Positions 6,465-28,975 of a stretch of DNA of 30,049 nucleotides are shown here, in pieces. The stretch lies in IMG/VR virus record IMGVR_UViG_2667528045_000005; one strand, 5' to 3'. Position numbers and translations under genes: made by a program. Position 1 is the stretch's first letter; every line of letters begins with the position of its first letter. The stretch is from a virus. Its lineage: Duplodnaviria; Heunggongvirae; Uroviricota; Caudoviricetes. The notes below the pieces were generated by a model. That model was not told where the DNA came from, searched no databases, and worked only from the letters and a program-made list of their open reading frames with translations.

Positions 6465-6707
6465 TCAGCAACGGATGCGGGAAATTTTTTGTATAGCGTT
6501 GAGATACCCGAGGCGATCCAGTTTCCAGACCACAAGCGTATCGCCCTCTGACAAGGTTCTGAGTAACCTCTTTAGCCCCGGCCAGTCTGATGTTTTGCCG
6601 CTGATTTTATCTTCGAAAATCAGCTCGCATCCTGCGCACTCCAGTTCATTTCGCTGTAATGCGGTGTTCTGGTCATTTGTTGATACACGTACATAACCGA
6701 TAAACAT
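6465..6707 (-). pseudogene. truncated Hin/Gin/Pin-family serine DNA invertase (N-terminal ~67 aa only)
   Basis: MFIGYVRVSTNDQNTALQRNELECAGCELIFEDKISGK...GDTLVVWKLDRLG aligns with the Hin N-terminus (catalytic Ser in RVST present); homology stops after DRLG and the ORF ends 13 codons later; only ~70 bp remain before the FI start. Confidence 0.75.
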
Positions 6708-6761
6708 GAGAAATAACCCGGTAAAAAGTCGGGATCATGCCAACTGAACGGAATATCTGCA

Positions 6762-6787
6762 TTTTCTAAAAGGTTGGTTTGGGAGAA
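6762..6787. other. hix/gix-like 26-bp inversion crossover site (outer site)
   Basis: TTTTCTAAAAGG TT GGTTTGGGAGAA; its inner half is the exact inverted copy of the inner half of the site at 8660-8685; in frame with the start of the alternative fibre ORF. Confidence 0.6.
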
Positions 6788-7126
6788 GCGGCTAAAAGGA
6801 ATGTAGGGACAGGGGCGAATCAGATACCTGATATGGGTAGCTTCACGCTTTCTGTTTCAGGTACTGGATATCAAAAATTACCATCAGGTTTTATTCTTCA
6901 GTGGGGCTCAATCGGCGCACCAGGCATTGCACAGGATGTAGTAACCCATTTCCCGATTGCATTTCCAAACAGATGTCTGCGTGTTTTGGTCTCACAAGAC
7001 TACACACCAGATAGCGGGGCTGTTGGTTATATTGCCTGTGCAGGTTTTAGTCCCGACCCGGTTAAATTTATATCCAGAGCCAGTACTCCTGGCCTCGGCG
7101 CTTCATTTTTAGCGTTAGGCTGTTAA
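6779..7126 (+). CDS. alternative tail-fibre C-terminal variable segment (Sv'-like), silent in this orientation
   Basis: 115-aa ORF with no ATG (begins TTG inside the crossover site); reading frame continuous with the H constant part after inversion; contains a [11 protein letters not shown]-type fibre-tip sequence. Confidence 0.55.
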
Positions 7127-7147
7127 TTTAGCTATATGGAGTGAAAA

Positions 7148-7588
7148 ATGAATTACATATATTCCGCGACTACAAACTCTTTCTATCCGCTGGAGATGAA
7201 AGAGGATTACACTCAAGCTGACTCATGGCCAGATGATGCTGTTGAAGTTGATGAGCAAGTGTATATTGAGTTTTCCGGATTACCGCCGAAAGGAAAAATC
7301 CGTATCGCTGGAGAAAATGGTTTTCCTGCATGGTCTGAAATTCCACCACCAACACATGAGGAACAGATTGCTGCAGCCGAACTGGAAAAGCAGCAACTGA
7401 TTAATCAGGTCAACGATTATATGAACAGTAAACAATGGCCTGGTAAAGCCGCTATTGGTCGTCTGAAAGATGATGAACTGGCGCAATATAATTTGTGGCT
7501 GGATTATCTGGACGCACTGGAGCTGGTCGATACTTCCGGTGCGCCAGATATTGAATGGCCTACGCCTCCGGCAGTTCAGGCCAGATGA
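7148..7588 (+). CDS. tail fibre assembly protein (alternative, U'-like)
   Basis: 146 aa, Tfa-like C-terminus (LWLDYLDALELVDTSGAPDIEWPTPP); own GGAG RBS; convergent with and overlapping the 3' end of G. Confidence 0.8.
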   Translation: MNYIYSATTNSFYPLEMKEDYTQADSWPDDAVEVDEQVYIEFSGLPPKGKIRIAGENGFPAWSEIPPPTHEEQIAAAELEKQQLINQVNDYMNSKQWPGKAAIGRLKDDELAQYNLWLDYLDALELVDTSGAPDIEWPTPPAVQAR

Positions 7589-8162
7589 CATCCGGCGCGG
7601 TGCTGGTATCTGTTGCCGTCACCGCGTCAATGTAATCCAGCACAGCGTTAAGGCGGGTTGTTTCTGCCTGCGTCAGTTTACGTCCGGCCTGCAATTTCAG
7701 CTGAATCAGACTGATGGAGGCCATTGCAGTATCAATCAGCGACTGGCGCTGTGCTTCTGCTGCATCTACTGCTGCGCCGTGCTGTGCCTCGGTATCCGTC
7801 ACCCATTTCTCACCATCCCATTTATCGTATGGCGTTAACGGGGCGATAGTGGTTGTATTTTCATGGTAATCACCCGGAGCTGTGATTTCTTTTGATTCTC
7901 CTGTTTCAGTGCTATATACCGTTTCACCACGGTGGTCTGGCACATATACCCATGAGTTAAAATCTGCAGAACGGCAGATTGCATAACCAGCTTTATATGA
8001 GTCAGGAGCATCTAAACAGGAGCATGCCGGAATGCCGACACCCACAGCAAGATATTCAGTTGATGTGAAAATATATTCCCGTGTTTCACCATCATAGTTA
8101 TAAACAGTAATATTTCCTGCTTGGGTGGCGATAAATTCGTTATTTAATACGGCGTAATCCAT
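7560..8162 (-). CDS. G: tail fibre assembly protein gpG
   Basis: 200 aa; Tfa-family C-terminus (LDYIDAVTATDTSTAPDVIWPELPEA); immediately downstream of H. Confidence 0.85.
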   Translation of the reverse strand: MDYAVLNNEFIATQAGNITVYNYDGETREYIFTSTEYLAVGVGIPACSCLDAPDSYKAGYAICRSADFNSWVYVPDHRGETVYSTETGESKEITAPGDYHENTTTIAPLTPYDKWDGEKWVTDTEAQHGAAVDAAEAQRQSLIDTAMASISLIQLKLQAGRKLTQAETTRLNAVLDYIDAVTATDTSTAPDVIWPELPEA

Positions 8163-9280
8163 TATGCAGCCCTCACGATATACGCAAATGCCAGGTTCCG
8201 TGGTCTGGTTTCTTTAATTAAAGAGGAGGCATCAGGTGAACTCACTGATTCAGCACCATTTCTTCCACCAGTGGTATAAGTAAAAACTCTTTCACTGTTA
8301 GACCAGTAATCCACACCAACTGTTTTTGCTGATGAAAAAATGGTTTCATCAGATATAACCTGTTCTATTCCATACGGGATATTAGTAACTGACCCCACTT
8401 TTGTAGGTATTCCATGATTATGAGAAATTACTGCATGCTCTTGATTCGTTAATAAAGTACGACCGCTATCCACTCCACGCCCGTCATCCCAGCCACGAAT
8501 AAACTCACCACGTAAATCAGGCAATTTATTTGTCGGATAAGCCTTTGCCAGTTCCGGGTATTCTTCAGCAGAAAAAGCGGCACCGTTGCATTTCAGCCAG
8601 CCTGTTGGCGGAGTGGCGGAAGGCCACGGAACAGGCACGCCAACGGGTAATGCCGAACCTTCTCCCAAACCAAGGTTTTTAAGAACGTCGCCGGCCAGTC
8701 CCGCGTCAACCATTTCTTTCAGAGCATTAGCGATTAACGGGTACTGCTTGTGTGGATTGGCGGCCTCAACATGTTTTTTCATCAGGTCATCAGCATATCC
8801 TTTCACCTCGATAATCTTGTCGTCGACATACTGGCGCGTTGCCAGCACGACTGCCGGGTCGATTTTCAGGGTGATTGCCGATGTGCTCGACACAACCAGA
8901 ATCATGCGAATGGTCTGCGTGCGACCGCTTCCCTCCTGCAGTTGTGGCTTGTAGGTCTCCGGACAGTTCGCCACGGCAATCAGAATACCATCATCGTCAT
9001 AGAGACCAATCTCGCGGATCCAGAAACCACCTTCATTCTCGGGAATAATCTGTTCCGCGATAATCTGACTGGTATTGGCCGGGTCAACGGTCAGCAGGTT
9101 CAGCGGCGCGATGCGTTTCTGGTTAATGAGCTTCGTCTGCGCCGGGTCAGGGGTCGGCAACGTACCATTCGCATCACCGACGGCCATCTGCGTCAGGTTG
9201 AGTTTGGTACCGAGTGCCGCCGCGTTCGCCAGCCGCGCCGCGCCCTGATTGGTCAGAATGGCAAAATATTTTGCGGTCAT
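8162..9280 (-). CDS. H: tail fibre protein gpH (constant N-terminus + current variable C-terminus)
   Basis: 372 aa; N-terminus aligns with P2 gpH (MAVGD...AVANCPETYKP...SGR.QT.RM..VVSS); a hix-like site lies within the coding sequence at residues ~199-207. Confidence 0.85.
   Translation of the reverse strand: MTAKYFAILTNQGAARLANAAALGTKLNLTQMAVGDANGTLPTPDPAQTKLINQKRIAPLNLLTVDPANTSQIIAEQIIPENEGGFWIREIGLYDDDGILIAVANCPETYKPQLQEGSGRTQTIRMILVVSSTSAITLKIDPAVVLATRQYVDDKIIEVKGYADDLMKKHVEAANPHKQYPLIANALKEMVDAGLAGDVLKNLGLGEGSALPVGVPVPWPSATPPTGWLKCNGAAFSAEEYPELAKAYPTNKLPDLRGEFIRGWDDGRGVDSGRTLLTNQEHAVISHNHGIPTKVGSVTNIPYGIEQVISDETIFSSAKTVGVDYWSNSERVFTYTTGGRNGAESVSSPDASSLIKETRPRNLAFAYIVRAA
8660..8685. other. 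hix/gix-like 26-bp inversion crossover site (inside H)
   Basis: TTCTCCCAAACC AA GGTTTTTAAGAA; about 21/26 identical to Salmonella hixL as I remember it; encodes VLKNLGLGE of H. Confidence 0.6.
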
Positions 9281-9885
9281 GCGTTCACTCTCAGGTTATC
9301 AATCAAATGGATGGCCGAGGCCGGGTAATATTCACCGCCGACGACAATCTCCTCGGGGGTGTAGGGGTAAACAGTCAGCGCGTCGCCGTGATAGCATCCC
9401 GCGCCGACATACAGTTCGCCGGTCGAGCTCAGACTGATAGCCAGCCCGGTCAGGTGGCGACTTGCCGGTTTGGCGTCTTCAATCAGGCGCTCAAGCTCCT
9501 GATACATTTCGTCAGTGATGCCGCTGTCGAGGACGCCAACAACGAGGCGGAATGTGCCTGGCTCCTCGTCGAGTTGCCACCACTCGCGCACCTCAATCAG
9601 AAAGCCGAGCGGCTCGACGACCCGACGCAATGCGCTGATGGTGCCTTTGTGCTGATGGACGAAAAACGAGGACGCGCAGACGTTGCGCTTTGTCGCCTCC
9701 GGCCATTTCTCATCCCACCTGTCGACCGACAGCGCCCACGCCAGATACGGCAGCAGCTTTACCGGGCAGGTGCGCCAGTTCCACAGGGTGCGCAGCGGTA
9801 CCGGCACGCGCTGAATCTCAGAGAACGCAGCGGCGGCGGCAACCTCCAGCGGCGACGAGCCAACGGGTAATAGCCGGTCACTCAT
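9277..9885 (-). CDS. I: baseplate assembly protein gpI
   Basis: 202 aa; position and sequence consistent with P2 gpI. Confidence 0.85.
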   Translation of the reverse strand: MSDRLLPVGSSPLEVAAAAAFSEIQRVPVPLRTLWNWRTCPVKLLPYLAWALSVDRWDEKWPEATKRNVCASSFFVHQHKGTISALRRVVEPLGFLIEVREWWQLDEEPGTFRLVVGVLDSGITDEMYQELERLIEDAKPASRHLTGLAISLSSTGELYVGAGCYHGDALTVYPYTPEEIVVGGEYYPASAIHLIDNLRVNA

Positions 9886-14857: not shown

Positions 14858-15607
14858 TTAACCGGCGGTTTTTACCGCCTTTGGTGGACGCCCGCGCTTT
14901 GCCGCCGGTTTGTTGGCAGGTTTGCGCGTGCGCGGTTTAGTCGTTTTACGGGGCGCGGCCTCTGGCTTTGGCTTCAATGCCCGTTCCAGTCGCTCAATCT
15001 CCTTGCGCACACCGGCATTGCGGTCGAGCTGCATCGCGCGCTGAAACTGCGCCAGCGCCTCTGCATTCATACCGGCATCACGCAGGGTCAGGCCTGTCAC
15101 CTTATGCAGACGGGCGCGCACCATATCGGGAACGTCAGCGCCGTCGGTCAGGTCGATAGTGGTCTGCAGCCAGGAAAGGTCGACAGACTCACCGGCATCG
15201 CGCAGGCGCTGCGCAGCAAGCGCCACTTCCTCAACCAGCATGTAAGGTGTTGTGCGGCGGTGGTCAGAGGTGAGGCCGTATTTCAGCGCGTACGGGGCAA
15301 TTTCCAGCGCGCCAGCGATATCACCGGCATCGAGACGCCACAGCATGACGGTCATGACAATGTCATCCTGCGCACCACGGCCATCAGCCAGCACACCGGC
15401 GACCCACGGCGCATAGAACGGCAGCAGCTCGCGCTTTTTCTCGGCTTTACGTTCGTTTGAACGGATGTTTTTTAACGTGCGGCGGTCATCGGCCAGCTTA
15501 ACCAGCATCTGCTCATAGGCGGTTGCATGGCGCAGCGGGGCTTGCTCCCGCTGCGCGGCTTGAGAGGCCGAGACCCGCATCATGTGACGCTGTGCGGGGC
15601 TCGTCAT
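14858..15607 (-). CDS. M: terminase small (endonuclease) subunit gpM
   Basis: 249 aa with basic Lys/Pro-rich C-terminal tail; P2 gpM-like. Confidence 0.88.
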   Translation of the reverse strand: MTSPAQRHMMRVSASQAAQREQAPLRHATAYEQMLVKLADDRRTLKNIRSNERKAEKKRELLPFYAPWVAGVLADGRGAQDDIVMTVMLWRLDAGDIAGALEIAPYALKYGLTSDHRRTTPYMLVEEVALAAQRLRDAGESVDLSWLQTTIDLTDGADVPDMVRARLHKVTGLTLRDAGMNAEALAQFQRAMQLDRNAGVRKEIERLERALKPKPEAAPRKTTKPRTRKPANKPAAKRGRPPKAVKTAG

Positions 15608-17774: not shown

Positions 17775-19544
17775 ATGACCATTTCCACCGATACAACCTT
17801 GTTGCATGACCCGCGACGGCAGGCATCGCTGCTTTACTGGCAGGGTTTTTCCGTGCCACAGATTGCCGAAATGCTGCAGGTCAAGCGCCCGACCGTGCAG
17901 AGCTGGAAGCAGCGCGACGGCTGGGACGGCATCGCGCCGATTTCCCGCGTTGAAAGCAGCCTTGAGGCCAGGCTGATTCAGCTCATCGCCAAGCCGCAAA
18001 AGACAGGGGGTGATTTCAAAGAGATTGACCTGCTCGGACGGCAGATTGAACGGTTGGCGCGAGTCAACCGCTACAGCCAGACCGGCAACGAAGCCGACCT
18101 TAACCCCAACGTCGCCAACCGCAACAAAGGGGAGCGCAAAAAGCCGAAAAAGAATTTTTTCAGCGACGAGGCTATCGATAAACTAGAGGAATTATTTTTC
18201 GACCAGTCTTTCGAGTACCAGTTGCAGTGGTACCGCGCAGGACTGGAGCACCGTATTCGTGACATTCTCAAATCCCGCCAGATTGGCGCGACATTCTATT
18301 TCTCCCGCGAGGCACTGCTGCGCGCACTCAAAACCGGCCATAACCAGATATTTTTATCAGCCAGTAAAACGCAGGCTTACGTGTTCCGCGAATACATCAT
18401 CCAGTTTGCGCGACTGGTCGACGTTGATCTGACTGGCGACCCGATTGTCATCGGTAACAACGGCGCAAAACTGATTTTTCTCGGTACCAATTCCAACACC
18501 GCGCAGAGCCATAACGGCGATCTGTATGTCGATGAAATATTCTGGATCCCGAATTTTCAGAAACTGCGCAAAGTCGCCTCGGGCATGGCCTCGCAAAAGC
18601 ACCTGCGCTCGACCTATTTTTCGACACCTTCCACGCTGGCGCACGGCGCTTACCCCTTCTGGTCTGGCGAGCTGTTCAACAAGGGGCGCAGCCGGATTGC
18701 CGACCGCATCGAAATCGACATCAGTCACAGCGCGCTCGCCGGTGGCCAGCTCTGCGACGATGGCCAGTGGCGGCAGATTGTCACCATTGAGGACGCCCTT
18801 GCGGGTGGCTGCACCCTGTTCGACCTCGACCAGCTCAAACGCGAAAACAGTGATGAGGACTTTAAGAACCTGTTTATGTGCGAGTTTGTCGACGATAAAG
18901 CGTCGGTATTCCCGTTCGAGGAGCTGCAGCGCTGCATGGTCGATGTGATGGAGGAATGGGAGGACTTTGCCCCGTTCGCCGACCATCCGTTCGGCTCTCG
19001 TCCTGTCTGGATTGGCTACGACCCGTCACACACCGGCGACAGTGCCGGGTGCGTCGTGCTCGCGCCGCCGGTGGTCTCTGGTGGCAAGTTCCGCATGCTG
19101 GAGCGCCACCAGTGGAAGGGCATGGATTTTGCAGCACAGGCAGAGGGCATCCGCAAGCTGACCGAGAAATACAACGTCGAATACATCGGCATTGACGCAA
19201 CCGGCCTCGGTCTCGGCGTGTTCCAGCTGGTGCGCTCATTTTACCCGGCGGCACGCGGCATCCGTTACACACCTGAAATGAAAACCGCAATGGTACTCAA
19301 GGCGAAAGACACCATACGCCGTGGCTGTCTGGAGTACGACGCCGGAGCAACCGACGTCACGCAGTCGTTTATGTCCATCCGCAAAACCATGACCAGCAGC
19401 GGGCGCTGCGCCACCTATGAGGCCAGCCGCACCGAGGAAGCCAGCCACGCCGATATCGCATGGGCGACCATGCACGCCCTGTTAAACGAACCGCTTTCTG
19501 CCGGTAGCGGCATGCAGCCTAAATCTATTCTGGAGTTCAACTAA
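17775..19544 (+). CDS. P: terminase large (ATPase) subunit gpP
   Basis: 589 aa; P2 gpP-like. Confidence 0.9.
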   Translation: MTISTDTTLLHDPRRQASLLYWQGFSVPQIAEMLQVKRPTVQSWKQRDGWDGIAPISRVESSLEARLIQLIAKPQKTGGDFKEIDLLGRQIERLARVNRYSQTGNEADLNPNVANRNKGERKKPKKNFFSDEAIDKLEELFFDQSFEYQLQWYRAGLEHRIRDILKSRQIGATFYFSREALLRALKTGHNQIFLSASKTQAYVFREYIIQFARLVDVDLTGDPIVIGNNGAKLIFLGTNSNTAQSHNGDLYVDEIFWIPNFQKLRKVASGMASQKHLRSTYFSTPSTLAHGAYPFWSGELFNKGRSRIADRIEIDISHSALAGGQLCDDGQWRQIVTIEDALAGGCTLFDLDQLKRENSDEDFKNLFMCEFVDDKASVFPFEELQRCMVDVMEEWEDFAPFADHPFGSRPVWIGYDPSHTGDSAGCVVLAPPVVSGGKFRMLERHQWKGMDFAAQAEGIRKLTEKYNVEYIGIDATGLGLGVFQLVRSFYPAARGIRYTPEMKTAMVLKAKDTIRRGCLEYDAGATDVTQSFMSIRKTMTSSGRCATYEASRTEEASHADIAWATMHALLNEPLSAGSGMQPKSILEFN

Positions 19545-19545
19545 A

Positions 19546-20592
19546 ATGGGTAAACAAAAATCCCGTAAAGCCAACGCACAAAAGGCCAGCAAACCACAAC
19601 AACTGACCGCCAGCGCACCGCCAAAAACGACAGCGTTCACCTTCGGCGAGCCGGTGCCGGTACTCGATAAGCGCGACATTCTGGATTACGTCGAGTGCAT
19701 CAGTAACGGCAAATGGTACGAGCCGCCGGTCAGCTTCTCAGGGCTGGCAAAGAGCCTGCGCTCTGCCGTGCATCACAGCTCGCCAATTTATGTTAAGCGT
19801 AACGTGCTCGCGAGCACCTACATTCCGCACCCGTTGTTATCCCGTCAGGATTTCAGCCGCTTTGCGCTCGATTATCTGGTGTTCGGTAACGCCTTTCTTG
19901 AGCAGCGCCACAGCGTCACCGGCCAGTTAATCAAACTGCTGGCCTCGCCAGCCAAATACACCCGACGCGGAGTCGACGATTCGATTTTCTGGTTTGTGGA
20001 AAACTTCACCCAGCCGCACGAGTTCGCGCCTGATACCGTGTTTCACCTGCTGGAGCCCGACATTAATCAGGAGATTTACGGTCTGCCGGAATATCTCAGC
20101 GCGCTTAATTCCGCTTGGCTGAATGAATCCGCGACGCTGTTCCGCCGCAAGTATTATCAGAACGGCGCGCACGCAGGCTACATCATGTATGTGACTGACC
20201 CGGCGCAGAGCGCGACCGACGTCGAATCGCTGCGCGAGGCGATGCGCAACTCAAAAGGGCTCGGCAACTTTAAGAACCTGTTTTTCTACGCTCCCGGCGG
20301 AAAACCGGACGGCATCAAAATCGTGCCACTGAGCGAGGTCGCCACAAAGGATGACTTTTTCAACATCAAGAAGGCCAGTGCCGCCGATCTGATGGACGCG
20401 CACCGCGTACCGTTCCAGCTCATGGGCGGCAAGCCCGAGAATATCGGTTCACTCGGTGATGTTGAGAAGGTGGCAAAGGTATTTGTGCGCAACGAGCTGT
20501 CGCCGCTACAGGACAGGTTCAGGGAGGTAAATGACTGGCTCGGCATGGAGGTCATCAGATTCAAAGAGTACACCCTCGACAACCCAGAATAA
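19546..20592 (+). CDS. Q: portal protein gpQ
   Basis: 348 aa; P2 gpQ-like; 1 nt after the P stop. Confidence 0.9.
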   Translation: MGKQKSRKANAQKASKPQQLTASAPPKTTAFTFGEPVPVLDKRDILDYVECISNGKWYEPPVSFSGLAKSLRSAVHHSSPIYVKRNVLASTYIPHPLLSRQDFSRFALDYLVFGNAFLEQRHSVTGQLIKLLASPAKYTRRGVDDSIFWFVENFTQPHEFAPDTVFHLLEPDINQEIYGLPEYLSALNSAWLNESATLFRRKYYQNGAHAGYIMYVTDPAQSATDVESLREAMRNSKGLGNFKNLFFYAPGGKPDGIKIVPLSEVATKDDFFNIKKASAADLMDAHRVPFQLMGGKPENIGSLGDVEKVAKVFVRNELSPLQDRFREVNDWLGMEVIRFKEYTLDNPE

Positions 20593-20622
20593 CTTAGGCC
20601 GCCACAATCTCTGCGCTCATTA

Positions 20623-20651
20623 TTGAAGATGCAATCTGCGAAAGCTATAGT
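20623..20651 (+). promoter_or_regulatory. sigma70-like promoter (TTGAAG - 17 nt - TATAGT) for the 334-aa orphan gene
   Basis: -35 at 20623-20628, 17-nt spacer, -10 at 20646-20651; ATG at 20670. Confidence 0.45.
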
Positions 20652-20669
20652 GCATCGAATATCAAAACA

Positions 20670-21674
20670 ATGGGCGCGGAGATTAATATTTTGGAAACTG
20701 ATTTTAAAATAACCCTCGAAGGTTTCGCTACTGAGCAAGAAGCAAATAATATCGGTAATTTCACACTAGAAGCTATCCGAGCTTTAACAAAAAATCTCAA
20801 TCTTGATATCTCCAAATTAAAATGCGTGATTGTTTCCTATAACTTCAGTGAAGCTCTTCAAAAGGTAACATCCTCTTACCAACACAAATCCCCTAGTTCA
20901 TTTACCAATAGCAAACAGGGCGCAGCCGTCGGGCAGTTAGTAACAAAAATTGGCAATGATGGGCTATGTGAAGAATATACCCTTGTGCTATCGATTGATT
21001 TTTTTGTTGAGCTTTTCAATGATGGTAGCTTCTTAAAACTGAAAGAAGAAGGATACCTCGCAGTCATCCATCGCATTCACCATGAATTAGTGCACGTACA
21101 TGAAAAAAACTTACTAACATGCTTAGCCCAAAACTTTACAGTCAACGAGTATGGTAGCGCGCTTCTTATCTCAGCCACGCGTGCATGGTCTGAATATCTC
21201 GCTAATTACATGTCTTCGGGGTCTGCCCCTCAAGAAACTATCGATTTATTTTTAGAGAATCTTGACACTGTTGTAAATGAAGTATCTGACGAGATTGAAA
21301 AACTCATCTGGGGTTATAAGTACGGTAATATTTCTCTGAATGACATGTATCTTGAAGTAAAAAAACGTATCAGGCTAATCATCAACTCTTATGCTTATGC
21401 GATGGGTTATGTCCATTCTCTAAACATCAATATTAAAGAATACGATCCAAAGCTATCCCTTACACTATCCAACTCAAAGATAAGATATCAATTATCAGAA
21501 TTAGGCATTGCTTTTCAGAATCTTTATGGGAAGTTTAATGACCAGCACATTACAGGTTTTGGTGATTTTCGGGAGATAACAATAATCATTGATGAAATAT
21601 TCAAGCAGTTTGGGCTTGTTTTAGAGTGTCCCGATTGGTCTGGCGACGGTGAACTCTACATACATGTAAATTAG
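20670..21674 (+). CDS. hypothetical protein, AT-rich orphan gene; HRIHHELVHVHE segment (HExxH-like or HEPN-like)
   Basis: 334-aa intact ORF; markedly lower GC than flanking phage genes; inserted between portal Q and cos. Confidence 0.6.
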   Translation: MGAEINILETDFKITLEGFATEQEANNIGNFTLEAIRALTKNLNLDISKLKCVIVSYNFSEALQKVTSSYQHKSPSSFTNSKQGAAVGQLVTKIGNDGLCEEYTLVLSIDFFVELFNDGSFLKLKEEGYLAVIHRIHHELVHVHEKNLLTCLAQNFTVNEYGSALLISATRAWSEYLANYMSSGSAPQETIDLFLENLDTVVNEVSDEIEKLIWGYKYGNISLNDMYLEVKKRIRLIINSYAYAMGYVHSLNINIKEYDPKLSLTLSNSKIRYQLSELGIAFQNLYGKFNDQHITGFGDFREITIIIDEIFKQFGLVLECPDWSGDGELYIHVN

Positions 21675-21893
21675 TTTAATCATAGTAGAAACATAATTAG
21701 CAGTTTGAATCCTGCCACTCCTATAAAGCCGCTGCTCCTGGTGGCTTTTCCATGCACACCACCATCACGCATCAGATGCGTCTCACGCGCACGAACACAC
21801 TCGACCACCAACGAACCAGCAGCGACCACGACAGCGCCATCACGACGCGCTCAGAGGATAATTTTTATTATTATGCATCACTGCTGGCGCGCA

Positions 21894-21912
21894 ATGCTTT
21901 CCCCGCCACGCC
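21894..21912. other. cos cohesive-end sequence (186-type)
   Basis: ATGCTTTCCCCGCCACGCC is the reverse complement of GGCGTGGCGGGGAAAGCAT, the phage 186 cohesive end as I remember it (2 mismatches to P2). Confidence 0.7.
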
Positions 21913-22072
21913 TGCCCGCTTTATGGGGCGGTTTTAATGCAGTTGCATGACAACTCTGGATCCGCGCTAGCTCTGGCGGCGCACGGACAGAACGGGCAAG
22001 ACTGACGCATGCAAAACCATGCACCTAATGCATGCACGACTAAAAAACGGGAAATTCGCGGAAAAATGGCAT

Positions 22073-22106
22073 AAAAAAACCGGCATTCAGGGTGCCGGTT
22101 TTAGTC
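22073..22106. terminator. bidirectional intrinsic terminator
   Basis: A7 - CCGGCA TTCAGGG TGCCGG - TTTT; on the minus strand the hairpin is followed by seven Ts. Confidence 0.6.
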
Positions 22107-22238: not shown

Positions 22239-22523
22239 TTATTTGCGCATTCTGATGTGATTTAACAGGTGTTTGATAACGACTGATAGCTCATCTTTAC
22301 CGGCCTGCTCGACCATTTTTGCGGTGTAGCTTTCCACCTCGCGAGAGCTCAGGTCGTTATTTAAAGCCATTAAAGTCAGATTCTTTGCCCAATCGGCAAA
22401 CGGGTCATTTTTCGATGAAAGGGGATTTTGCATGTCCAAAAACCTCGAATTATTTAACCAGCAGACGGTTGAAGTATTTGCGACGCTATGACCGGCTAAC
22501 GCCTCGCGTAGCTCGTTGTTCAA
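22239..22523 (-). CDS. hypothetical protein (start uncertain: TTG at 22523 or ATG at 22433)
   Basis: 94-aa ORF in the cos-proximal island; N-terminal codons overlap repeat copy R1. Confidence 0.4.
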   Translation of the reverse strand: MNNELREALAGHSVANTSTVCWLNNSRFLDMQNPLSSKNDPFADWAKNLTLMALNNDLSSREVESYTAKMVEQAGKDELSVVIKHLLNHIRMRK

Positions 22524-22564
22524 CCCCGCCAGACCTGAAAGCGAGTTTCAGCTCCGGCGGCGTT
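22496..22564. repeat. 69-bp structured direct repeat, copy R1
   Basis: 60/69 identical to 22901-22969, no gaps; contains imperfect palindrome CCGCCAG..CTGAAA..TTTCAG..CCGGCGG; starts right after the 69-aa ORF stop. Confidence 0.6.
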
Positions 22565-22566
22565 AT

Positions 22567-22776
22567 CTATGGTCGACGTGGTGGCGGTGAGTAATGTGTC
22601 GGCTTGCTGATGCTATCCAGCTTGCCGTAATTATCCCTGACTATTTCGGCACACCCGACCAGCTCGGCGGGTGTCAAATTCTCATTGACCATTATCTGCT
22701 GCAGACGATGAACGATGGCCATCAGTTTGATGCTTTTAGTTTTGTGCTGCGGAATTTCGCCCGGTAGTCGATGCAT
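22567..22776 (-). CDS. hypothetical protein (69 aa)
   Basis: ORF with GAGGG RBS; bracketed by the two 69-bp repeats. Confidence 0.4.
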   Translation of the reverse strand: MHRLPGEIPQHKTKSIKLMAIVHRLQQIMVNENLTPAELVGCAEIVRDNYGKLDSISKPTHYSPPPRRP

Positions 22777-22971: not shown

Positions 22972-23205
22972 TTAATGCAGCCAGCTATCGTCCTCCCATA
23001 CCTGCTGCATGATTTCCATTACTCGTTTTTTATCTTCGTCCAGTTTCAAACCGCTTAGTTCAACGCCATTAGCGGAGCCCTTGCGAATTCGGATAGCAGT
23101 CTTTGGGTAAATAGGTTGAAGATTGCGGTACAGTTCAGCCTCAAGTGCATCCAATGTTGCCTGACTAATTTTTTGCTCTTTATCCAACGTGATATTGATT
23201 CTCAT
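22972..23205 (-). CDS. dinI: DinI-family protein
   Basis: 77 aa; MRINITLDK...LDALEAELYRNLQPIYP...DEDKKRVMEIMQQVWEDDSW aligns along its length with E. coli DinI. Confidence 0.82.
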   Translation of the reverse strand: MRINITLDKEQKISQATLDALEAELYRNLQPIYPKTAIRIRKGSANGVELSGLKLDEDKKRVMEIMQQVWEDDSWLH

Positions 23206-23208
23206 AAT

Positions 23209-23391
23209 CTAATCAGCCTTATAAAAATTATCATCTTCGGTTTCGTTATTTTCGCTGTTTGCTAGGTCTGCAATGAGAGTGAGCGCGAGCTTTAAGTCTG
23301 ATGGCTTGCAGTTTGCAATCAGAGATACCTCGGCAATAAATTGCACACAAGCCCACTTTTGCTGCGTTCGGCTGAAATGTTCGCCAACCAT
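23209..23391 (-). CDS. hypothetical small protein; candidate SOS-induced antirepressor (Tum-like) by position
   Basis: 60 aa, acidic C-terminus; first gene after the LexA box; stop 4 nt before the dinI-like start. Confidence 0.4.
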   Translation of the reverse strand: MVGEHFSRTQQKWACVQFIAEVSLIANCKPSDLKLALTLIADLANSENNETEDDNFYKAD

Positions 23392-23410
23392 GAAATCCCT
23401 CCCACAGGGT

Positions 23411-23430
23411 TACTGTATATTTATACAGTA
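23411..23430. promoter_or_regulatory. LexA operator (SOS box) overlapping a minus-strand promoter
   Basis: TACTGTATATTTATACAGTA fits CTGT-N8-ACAG consensus perfectly; minus strand has TTGCCA upstream and an AT-rich -10 inside the box; GGGAGGG RBS then ATG of the 60-aa ORF. Confidence 0.8.
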
Positions 23431-27781: not shown

Positions 27782-28627
27782 ATGTCTAAAAATGATGTTA
27801 ATGCGTCTGCCGCATTGGAACGTGTCCTTTCTGCATACGGCTTTAAGCAGCAAAAGGAACTAGCCGAAAGGCTTGGCATACATGCAAACAACGTGAGTAG
27901 CTGGCTTGCTAGAAACGTAATCCCTAGCAACGTTTTCGTTGAGTGTGCTCTTGATACTGGAGCTGACCTGCGATGGCTAATTAATGGTGAGCTTGCAAAT
28001 GCAAGATTTGAAGTGGTGAAAACTAAGCTTAAAGGTAAGCAACTCTATGATGAAATCATGGCAAATGGAGGGAGGGCGGTTCTGCGTCGGATTCTCGATG
28101 CGTATGGTTTTACTCTGCAAAAAGAGCTTGGAGATTTATTAGGTATATCTTCCGGCACTATAAGCACTTGGGTTAGACGCGATTTTTTCCCCGGTGACGT
28201 GGTTGTCACTTGCGCCCTTGATACTGGCGTATCGTTAGAATGGTTATCAACCGGAAAAGGCCAGATGCGTAACAGTAATGATGGTGAACCGGCAAATGCT
28301 TTAACGATTAGAAAGTGCCGCCTCGAGGCTGGCGAACTCAAAGATATCGGACGCTGGACTCCTGATATATCTATGGTTCCATCAAATACTGATGATTTAG
28401 TGTTTATTGATGGTGTGAGCACATCTTGGCTTGTTGATAGTTCTAACTCGAAGATAGGAAATGGTCGCTGGCTTATTGGTATTGATGGCGCACTCGATGT
28501 TTTTGACGTAATCAGGTTGCCAGGCGGAAAGGTCAGGTTATCAAATAAGTCTGCTGAGTTTGAATGTAATATTTCAGATATCACACCATCAGGTGCGGTT
28601 ATTTTTACTTTGGAAAAGCATGTTTAA
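27782..28627 (+). CDS. cI: CI-like immunity repressor with tandemly duplicated N-terminal HTH domain
   Basis: Start trimmed to ATG 27782 (MSKNDVN...), 281 aa; two ~65-aa repeats (AYGFKQQKELAERLGI...CALDTGADLRWL and AYGFTLQKELGDLLGI...CALDTGVSLEWL). Confidence 0.72.
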   Translation: MSKNDVNASAALERVLSAYGFKQQKELAERLGIHANNVSSWLARNVIPSNVFVECALDTGADLRWLINGELANARFEVVKTKLKGKQLYDEIMANGGRAVLRRILDAYGFTLQKELGDLLGISSGTISTWVRRDFFPGDVVVTCALDTGVSLEWLSTGKGQMRNSNDGEPANALTIRKCRLEAGELKDIGRWTPDISMVPSNTDDLVFIDGVSTSWLVDSSNSKIGNGRWLIGIDGALDVFDVIRLPGGKVRLSNKSAEFECNISDITPSGAVIFTLEKHV

Positions 28628-28636
28628 GGAGCAGTA

Positions 28637-28975
28637 ATGAAAAAGTTTATATTTGCGATAGTCTGCATTGCACTTTCTTCCTCAGCCATAGCCGCTGAGA
28701 AGTTTAAAGAGATAGACGGCGCTGCATATGGTGACAAGTGGCCTCTAACCTTTGAAAAGGCAAAGGTATCATGTGTTAACCGTGCTTATGCTTTTGTGTA
28801 TGACATCAAAACTGATGATAGATATCCTCTGAATGGCATGGCGGTAGATGCTGTTAAATCAGGAAAGCTGGAGGGGTCTAACTTAGATGACGTATGGAAG
28901 GATGACCCTGAGTATGACGGCGTTAAAATTTCAATTTCACCGGTGATTGATGCCGCTACAGCCCTTTGTAATTAA
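28637..28975 (+). CDS. secreted small protein of unknown function (signal peptide), moron between cI and int
   Basis: 112 aa; MKKFIFAIVCIALSSSAIA signal peptide; two Cys in mature part; lower GC than the phage core. Confidence 0.6.
   Translation: MKKFIFAIVCIALSSSAIAAEKFKEIDGAAYGDKWPLTFEKAKVSCVNRAYAFVYDIKTDDRYPLNGMAVDAVKSGKLEGSNLDDVWKDDPEYDGVKISISPVIDAATALCN

Follow-up and report, generated by a model that had tools for sequence, protein, structure and literature searches.

A 186/PSP3-type cos site, very probably that of an apparently intact Escherichia coli prophage, displaced from the portal gene by an inserted cargo gene

The stretch of viral DNA analyzed here (the window; 30,049 bp, running from the D stop codon to the int stop codon) carries at positions 21,894 to 21,912, on the minus strand, a single exact copy of the 19-nt cohesive-end sequence GGCGTGGCGGGGAAAGCAT, with 0 mismatches. 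This 19-mer is identical to positions 1 to 19 of the phage 186 record, which are annotated there as the cohesive end; the initial annotation had given the 186 sequence correctly. The same sequence is the cos of PSP3, whose record describes it as "identical to 186 cos," and the same 19-nt string is given for PsP3 and SEN1 in PMC5261728. The cohesive end of P2, GGCGAGGCGGGGAAAGCAC, differs from the window 19-mer at 2 of 19 positions (5 and 19). Neither a second cos nor a P2-type cos was found across the window at up to three mismatches, where 0.01 matches would be expected by chance. By virtue of its GC-rich 19-nt identity to the determined cohesive end of 186, the site belongs to the 186 subtype of the P2-family cos. 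Because the 186 annotation specifies "top strand cut at 5' end and bottom strand cut at 3' end," the nicks in the window are predicted to be staggered, falling at 21,913/21,912 on the minus strand and at 21,893/21,894 on the plus strand. The exact 19-mer was also present in four assemblies from outside the Enterobacterales (L150, L163, L167, and L149), whose labels are Martelella alba, Litoreibacter, Chryseobacterium sp., and Contendobacter MAG; its occurrence there may reflect either contamination or genuine host range.

Alignment of the window to 186, PSP3, P2, and P4, with the right end of each joined to its left end, placed the 19-mer within a conserved 55-bp cos core, the probable boundaries of which, as read from the alignment, are 21,887 and 21,941. 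The core is made up of a 29-bp right-end flank, the 19-mer, and a 7-bp left-end flank (TGCATTAAAACCGCCCCATAAAGCGGGCA / 19-mer / TGCGCGC). It is identical to 186 at 53 of 55 positions, to PSP3 at 54/55, to P2 at 50/55, and to P4 at 49/55, the figures for 186 and P2 being a comparison that the initial annotation had named as a check. In PMC5694545 and PMC3931495, the 55-bp core is credited to Ziermann and Calendar (1990).

Beyond the 19-mer, homology to 186 extends in both directions. The left-end cos flank (21,722 to 21,893) was matched by megablast to 186 positions 1 to 175 and is identical to 186 at 140 of 172 positions and to PSP3 at 143 of 172. It includes the portal-operon terminator, a plus-strand stem-loop at 21,731 to 21,745 followed by a T run, which was found by a terminator scan and is the equivalent of 186 tW (186 positions 164 to 187). 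The right-end cos flank (21,913 to 22,105) shares 169 of 193 positions with the final 193 nt of 186 and includes, on the minus strand, the SOS-operon terminator (22,076 to 22,102), identified by the terminator scan and the 186 annotation as the equivalent of t95b. The order around the site is tumA-tumB-orf-orf, terminator, cos, terminator, ORF334, Q, P, so that cos has the accessory/SOS genes of the right arm on one side and the portal-terminase operon on the other. A 61-aa "hypothetical protein" called by RefSeq (WP_000557532; 21,752 to 21,937, plus strand) spans cos; its frame is broken in 186 by single-base indels, and it is most likely a spurious gene call.

The portal gene, the homologue of P2 Q and of the 186 portal (19,546 to 20,592, plus strand), was recognized by the Pfam family Phage_portal and is 94% identical to its counterparts in 186 and PSP3 and 77% identical to that of P2. 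From its stop codon to the 19-mer we measured 1301 bp, in line with the initial estimate that cos lies ∼1.3 kb from the Q stop. In 186, PSP3, and P2 the corresponding distance is about 170 to 180 bp, the portal stop being located at record positions 196, 198, and 187, respectively. Cos lies this far from the portal gene because a 1128-bp foreign segment has been inserted between the portal stop and the terminator. This segment (20,593 to 21,720, plus strand) corresponds to a single gap in the reference phages in the alignment with 186, PSP3, and P2; its boundaries are exactly the portal stop codon and the portal-operon terminator, and its GC content is 37.7%, compared with 52.8% for the window. 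It contains one ORF, ORF334 (20,670 to 21,674, plus strand; 334 aa), which encodes an uncharacterized protein and lies on the same strand as P and Q. A promoter-like site upstream of ORF334 was no better than chance, as judged from shuffled sequence, and the geometry suggests that the late P-Q transcription unit ends with ORF334. Among the relatives, E. coli CX21 lacks the insert, and strain Res13-Sevr-PER07-33 has a DUF2188 gene between portal and cos instead.

In P2 and 186, the terminase binds cos on replicated DNA, nicks the strands 19 nt apart, and packages the DNA, and the 5′ overhangs re-anneal after injection. We consider it very probable that the site described here is the cos of an E. 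coli prophage that appears intact and belongs to the 186/PSP3 lineage (Eganvirus), and that the inserted ORF334 segment has displaced it from the portal, with cleavage predicted from the sequence. Upon induction and replication, the terminase encoded at 17,775 to 19,544 and 14,858 to 15,607 would recognize the core at 21,887 to 21,941 and nick the strands 19 nt apart, leaving 5′-protruding GGCGTGGCGGGGAAAGCAT ends that would re-anneal after injection. The foreign low-GC segment of 1128 bp carrying ORF334 would have been inserted with the cos region, the 172-bp left flank, and the terminator left untouched. Because the insert lies between the portal stop and the terminator, ORF334 would come last in the late terminase-portal operon and would also be the first gene met from the mature left end, which would read cos, the 172-bp flank with its terminator, ORF334 (antisense), Q, and P. 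This is essentially what had been proposed at the outset, namely that the packaged left end would begin with the orphan-gene region. The window provides everything that this reading requires of the sequence and that lends itself to testing, namely the core and its flanks, a cognate terminase, intact morphogenetic genes, and a 186-like length.

Both cognate subunits of the terminase are present and intact. The large (ATPase) subunit, the homologue of P2 gpP (589 aa; 17,775 to 19,544, plus strand), is 99% identical to that of 186, 97% to that of PSP3, and 89% to that of P2, and the corresponding values for the small subunit, the homologue of P2 gpM and 186 R (249 aa; 14,858 to 15,607, minus strand), are 98%, 95%, and 70%. 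Together with the ogr/B homologue and att, the whole prophage would measure ∼30.6 kb; 186 has a length of 30,624 bp. E. coli MB06232 carries the same prophage, flanked there by rplS and yfiB. In this strain (L008, 6478 to 7279), the cos region is 99.9% identical to that of the window, and an internal deletion has joined a truncated capsid gene to a tail-assembly pseudogene, which makes this copy a defective derivative.

The tail-to-capsid deletion in MB06232 lends some weight to a different reading, in which the prophage is defective and no longer packaged, its cos surviving as an inactive relic. No isolated virion with the exact arrangement was found either: the sole match to ORF334 in the phage collection was vB_EcoM-613R3, mentioned solely in a study that located phages in clinical isolates of E. 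coli, and we take it to be a predicted prophage rather than a virion isolate. A relic nevertheless seems quite unlikely to us, as the late, lysis, replication, and lysogeny genes of the window are all full-length ORFs with 80 to 100% identity to those of functional phages, the core and its flanks are intact, and many genomes of E. coli, Salmonella, and Citrobacter carry the element, a protein identical to ORF334 being encoded on 829 contigs.

To place the phage, the first 25 kb of the window were compared by megablast. The best relative, vB_EcoM-613R3, covered 90% of this region at 95.8% identity, and SW9, SEN1, PSP3, and 186 covered 76 to 83% at 89 to 90% identity. For these last four, coverage multiplied by identity amounts to ∼68 to 74%, which is near the genus threshold. 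We provisionally assign the phage to Eganvirus (the 186/PSP3 group) on the basis of its best relatives, which is distinct from a formal taxonomic test.

The initial annotation had favored a P2/186 mosaic, and a recombinant in which a P2 backbone acquired the cos and the immunity/SOS module of 186 would be expected to contain at least one segment nearer to P2 (Peduovirus). The P2-like gene order on which this view drew is real, since the late-gene order equals that of P2, but 186 has this order as well, so that it cannot tell the two apart. P and Q do abut as in P2 (junction at 19,544 to 19,546), without the 747-bp gene W that is found between portal and terminase in 186 and PSP3, and this absence is the sole specifically P2-like trait of the genome. 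Set against it are the comparisons at the DNA and protein levels. When the window was divided into 500-bp DNA tiles, the late genes were 85 to 97% identical to 186/PSP3 versus 70 to 84% to P2, and the early region had essentially no P2 DNA match, apart from one of 37 nt inside gene A. By per-gene tblastn, no gene compared over its full length was nearer to P2 than to 186/PSP3; the only ties between 186/PSP3 and P2 involved the divergent fibre-proximal genes H, I, and J, and the 94% identity of ORF K to P2 covers only 67% of an over-extended ORF. Moreover, P2 C, cox, B, old, and tin are all absent. Both the tiles and the tblastn comparison led us to reject the hybrid, since neither revealed a segment favoring P2, and we regard such a recombinant as extremely improbable.

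The mixing that is observed is of 186 with PSP3. The replication gene A is 82% identical to 186, 90% to PSP3, and 38% to P2, and int is 51%, 91%, and 37% identical, respectively. Four further genes had no match in P2: cII is closer to 186 (98%) than to PSP3 (78%), whereas cI (32% to 186 and 73% to PSP3), tumB (47% and 99%), and tumA (no match in 186 and 98% to PSP3) are closer to PSP3. On the sequence comparisons, the genome is that of a 186/PSP3-lineage prophage with 186-PSP3 mosaicism and not a P2/186 mosaic. The tail-fibre and fibre-assembly block (∼6465 to 9885, minus strand) had no DNA match to 186, PSP3, or P2, and its fibre protein is ∼47% identical over the N-terminal part; this block looks like a swapped host-range module.

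The lysogeny region is that of an Eganvirus, with a CI-type repressor and CII (Pfam matches to Phage_CI_repr plus Phage_CI_C and to Phage_CP76) and a LexA-controlled Tum antirepressor, instead of P2 C/Cox. The SOS operon is transcribed towards cos, and its head (22,972 to 23,430, minus strand) consists of a LexA box, tumA, and tumB. The LexA box (TACTGTATAAATATACAGTA; 23,411 to 23,430, minus strand) is a perfect CTGT-N8-ACAG sequence upstream of tumA (23,209 to 23,391, minus strand), which is followed by the tumB/DinI-like gene (22,972 to 23,205, minus strand), assigned by a DinI Pfam match and the PSP3 annotation. The CI domains, the LexA box, and tumA/tumB together confirm the presence of the CI and LexA/antirepressor module that had been noted from the sequence initially. 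Between tumB and the right-end terminator lie two small accessory ORFs of the SOS operon (22,239 to 22,776, minus strand), which fall into PHROGs 2454 and 11386; orf69 is 92% identical to PSP3 gp37.

With the start chosen by RefSeq, the CI repressor (27,782 to 28,627, plus strand) has 281 aa; it combines a CI C-terminal domain with two Phage_CI_repr helix-turn-helix domains in tandem. Its counterpart in 186 has 192 aa, and that in PSP3 has 286 aa and is 73% identical to it. The CI of PSP3 has been described as having "a longer C-terminal domain" (PMC3448106), but the Pfam matches point to a duplicated N-terminal DNA-binding domain. Between cI and int, as in PSP3, there is a DUF2511 gene (28,637 to 28,975, plus strand; 112 aa), the N-terminus of which, judged by eye, looks hydrophobic and like a signal peptide. 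It may be an accessory gene expressed in the lysogen.

To see how common the displacement is, we scanned IMG/VR for exact matches to the 19-mer, which gave at least 120 contigs, and located their portal genes by local tblastn with the portal protein. Among the matches listed, the portal gene was next to cos in 105, and 41 of these 105 contigs (39%) had extra DNA between the two. The cos-portal distance among these listed matches was canonical (142 to 216 bp) in 64 contigs, 374 to 488 bp in 15, and 1299 to 3792 bp in 26. ORF334 itself was present on about ten of the 120 19-mer contigs among the matches listed, and the Q-ORF334-cos arrangement was found in 26 of 5426 complete E. coli genomes; the strains 1008S13 and JKHS016 are examples with the arrangement in full. 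The IMG/VR contigs with the 19-mer exhibited two types of junction. In the first, as in the window, the insert lies between the portal stop and the terminator. In the second, replacement extends up to a point 26 nt from the end, sparing the 19-mer and TGCGCGC, even where the portals are 98 to 100% identical, and replacements that reach this far are consistent with a small essential core. In three such contigs (L078, L117, and L133), whose portals are 98 to 100% identical, the portal-side homology ends 26 to 33 nt from the end, and foreign DNA can thus abut the 55-bp core directly. That the insert impairs packaging or late expression, the arrangement being a recent deleterious accident, has nothing direct in its favor apart from a Q spacing 7 times the canonical one, and it is scarcely credible given that 39% of the listed contigs with a window-type cos have 0.4 to 3.8 kb there, that foreign DNA starts only 26 nt from the end in some contigs, and that the ORF334 arrangement is kept at 88 to 100% protein identity across diverged phages.

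Nine IMG/VR contigs with the exact 19-mer and a portal in the locus (L020, L040, L046, L048, L072, L079, L092, L116, and L123; portals 67 to 78% identical) combine a minimal gpA-cos spacing of 554 to 588 bp with 1.5 to 3.8 kb between cos and portal (9/9 among the matches listed). Their cargo lies on the portal side of cos and not on the gpA side.

Dodd and Egan (1996) and Nakayama et al. (1999) are cited in PMC5694545 for a cosL-Q hotspot, and a hotspot of antiviral systems that spans the entire gpA-gpQ interval on either side of cos was defined by Rousset et al. (2022; PMC9122126). Table S5 of that study includes, among its gpA-gpQ hotspot loci, some with the same tumA, DinI-family, and small SOS-operon ORF proteins as the window, as well as DUF2188. 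The Eganvirus paper PMC11126057 mentions neither cos nor the portal region. The phages compared here show the features of such a hotspot: they are otherwise collinear but vary in the foreign genes found beside cos between gpA and gpQ. It is thus not unusual for cos to be displaced from Q, and the displacement reflects a known hotspot rather than a new genome architecture.

The cargo gene itself gave no usable match in Pfam, NCBIfam, PADLOC, or a PDB sequence-profile search. ORF334 belongs to PHROG 11743, where its function is unassigned, and its 78 homologues, from the Enterobacterales, Shewanella, and Psychromonas, are all named hypothetical. In an alignment of 30 homologues, the motifs HHExxHxxE (residues 137–145) and WSEY (residues 173–176) were invariant down to 42% identity. 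The former contains an HExxH zinc-binding/catalytic motif, with His138, Glu139, and His142 invariant in the 30 homologues, and the invariant Glu145 and Glu175 are candidates for the third zinc ligand, which in gluzincins is a Glu on a downstream helix. A confident AlphaFold2 model of ORF334 (pLDDT of 90.8) has a predicted zincin/gluzincin-like fold with the features of a gluzincin catalytic domain, and a BFVD fold search returned only a weak "peptidase" match (E = 3.5e-3). We read ORF334 as a predicted zinc metallopeptidase.

Distant homologues of ORF334 occur in settings other than P2-like prophages. One (L135, 3998 to 4969) is found in a Shewanella chromosomal islet, adjoining a NERD-domain gene; another (L136, 6001 to 6990) is found in Kosakonia, adjoining a YafO toxin gene and a phage tail-fibre remnant. 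ORF334 is a mobile accessory gene. It does not correspond to a recognized anti-phage system, with no match in PADLOC, Pfam, or NCBIfam. Under its accession WP_225568245, it does not appear in the accessible part of Table S5 of Rousset et al. (PMC9122126), nor was it found among the tested systems of that study. A defence role is suggested solely by its location. A tentative idea is that ORF334 acts on its own as a new metalloprotease-type factor in anti-phage defence or lysogenic conversion, carried by 186-like phages in their cos-adjacent hotspot; we regard this as possible but rather unlikely.

Taken as a complete 186/PSP3-type prophage with a recognizable packaging site, the window fixes the ends of the virion chromosome for annotation or induction. 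The residual novelty lies in its cargo gene, ORF334, which encodes a predicted zinc peptidase and is located where anti-phage systems are enriched. Compared with the gluzincin zinc metallopeptidases (M1 aminopeptidases, M4 thermolysin, M9 collagenases, and M30), ORF334 has ∼10% identity and is without a family-profile match.

The closest known counterpart of the site is the cos of 186 and PSP3, which has the same 19-mer, 53 to 54 of 55 core positions in common, homologous flanks on both sides, including both terminators, and an equal position, with the SOS (tum) operon on one side and the portal-terminase operon on the other. The genome departs from these phages in that the portal stop is 1301 bp from cos, where the canonical distance is about 176 bp, the cause being the ORF334 insert; in addition, orf97 of 186 is replaced by PSP3-like small ORFs, and the W of 186/PSP3 is absent. 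The cos sites of P2 and P4 have the same architecture, with 49 to 50 of 55 core positions, 19-nt 5′ cohesive ends, and an adjoining variable cargo region, but their flanks outside the core are only ∼62 to 67% alike. As in the gpA-gpQ hotspot of P2-like phages, a foreign low-GC gene lies by cos, and relatives have alternative cargo or none; ORF334 is on the portal side of cos, whereas P2 old and tin are on the gpA side. Both the site and the phage are thus of kinds already known, and so is the cargo hotspot at which the feature lies.
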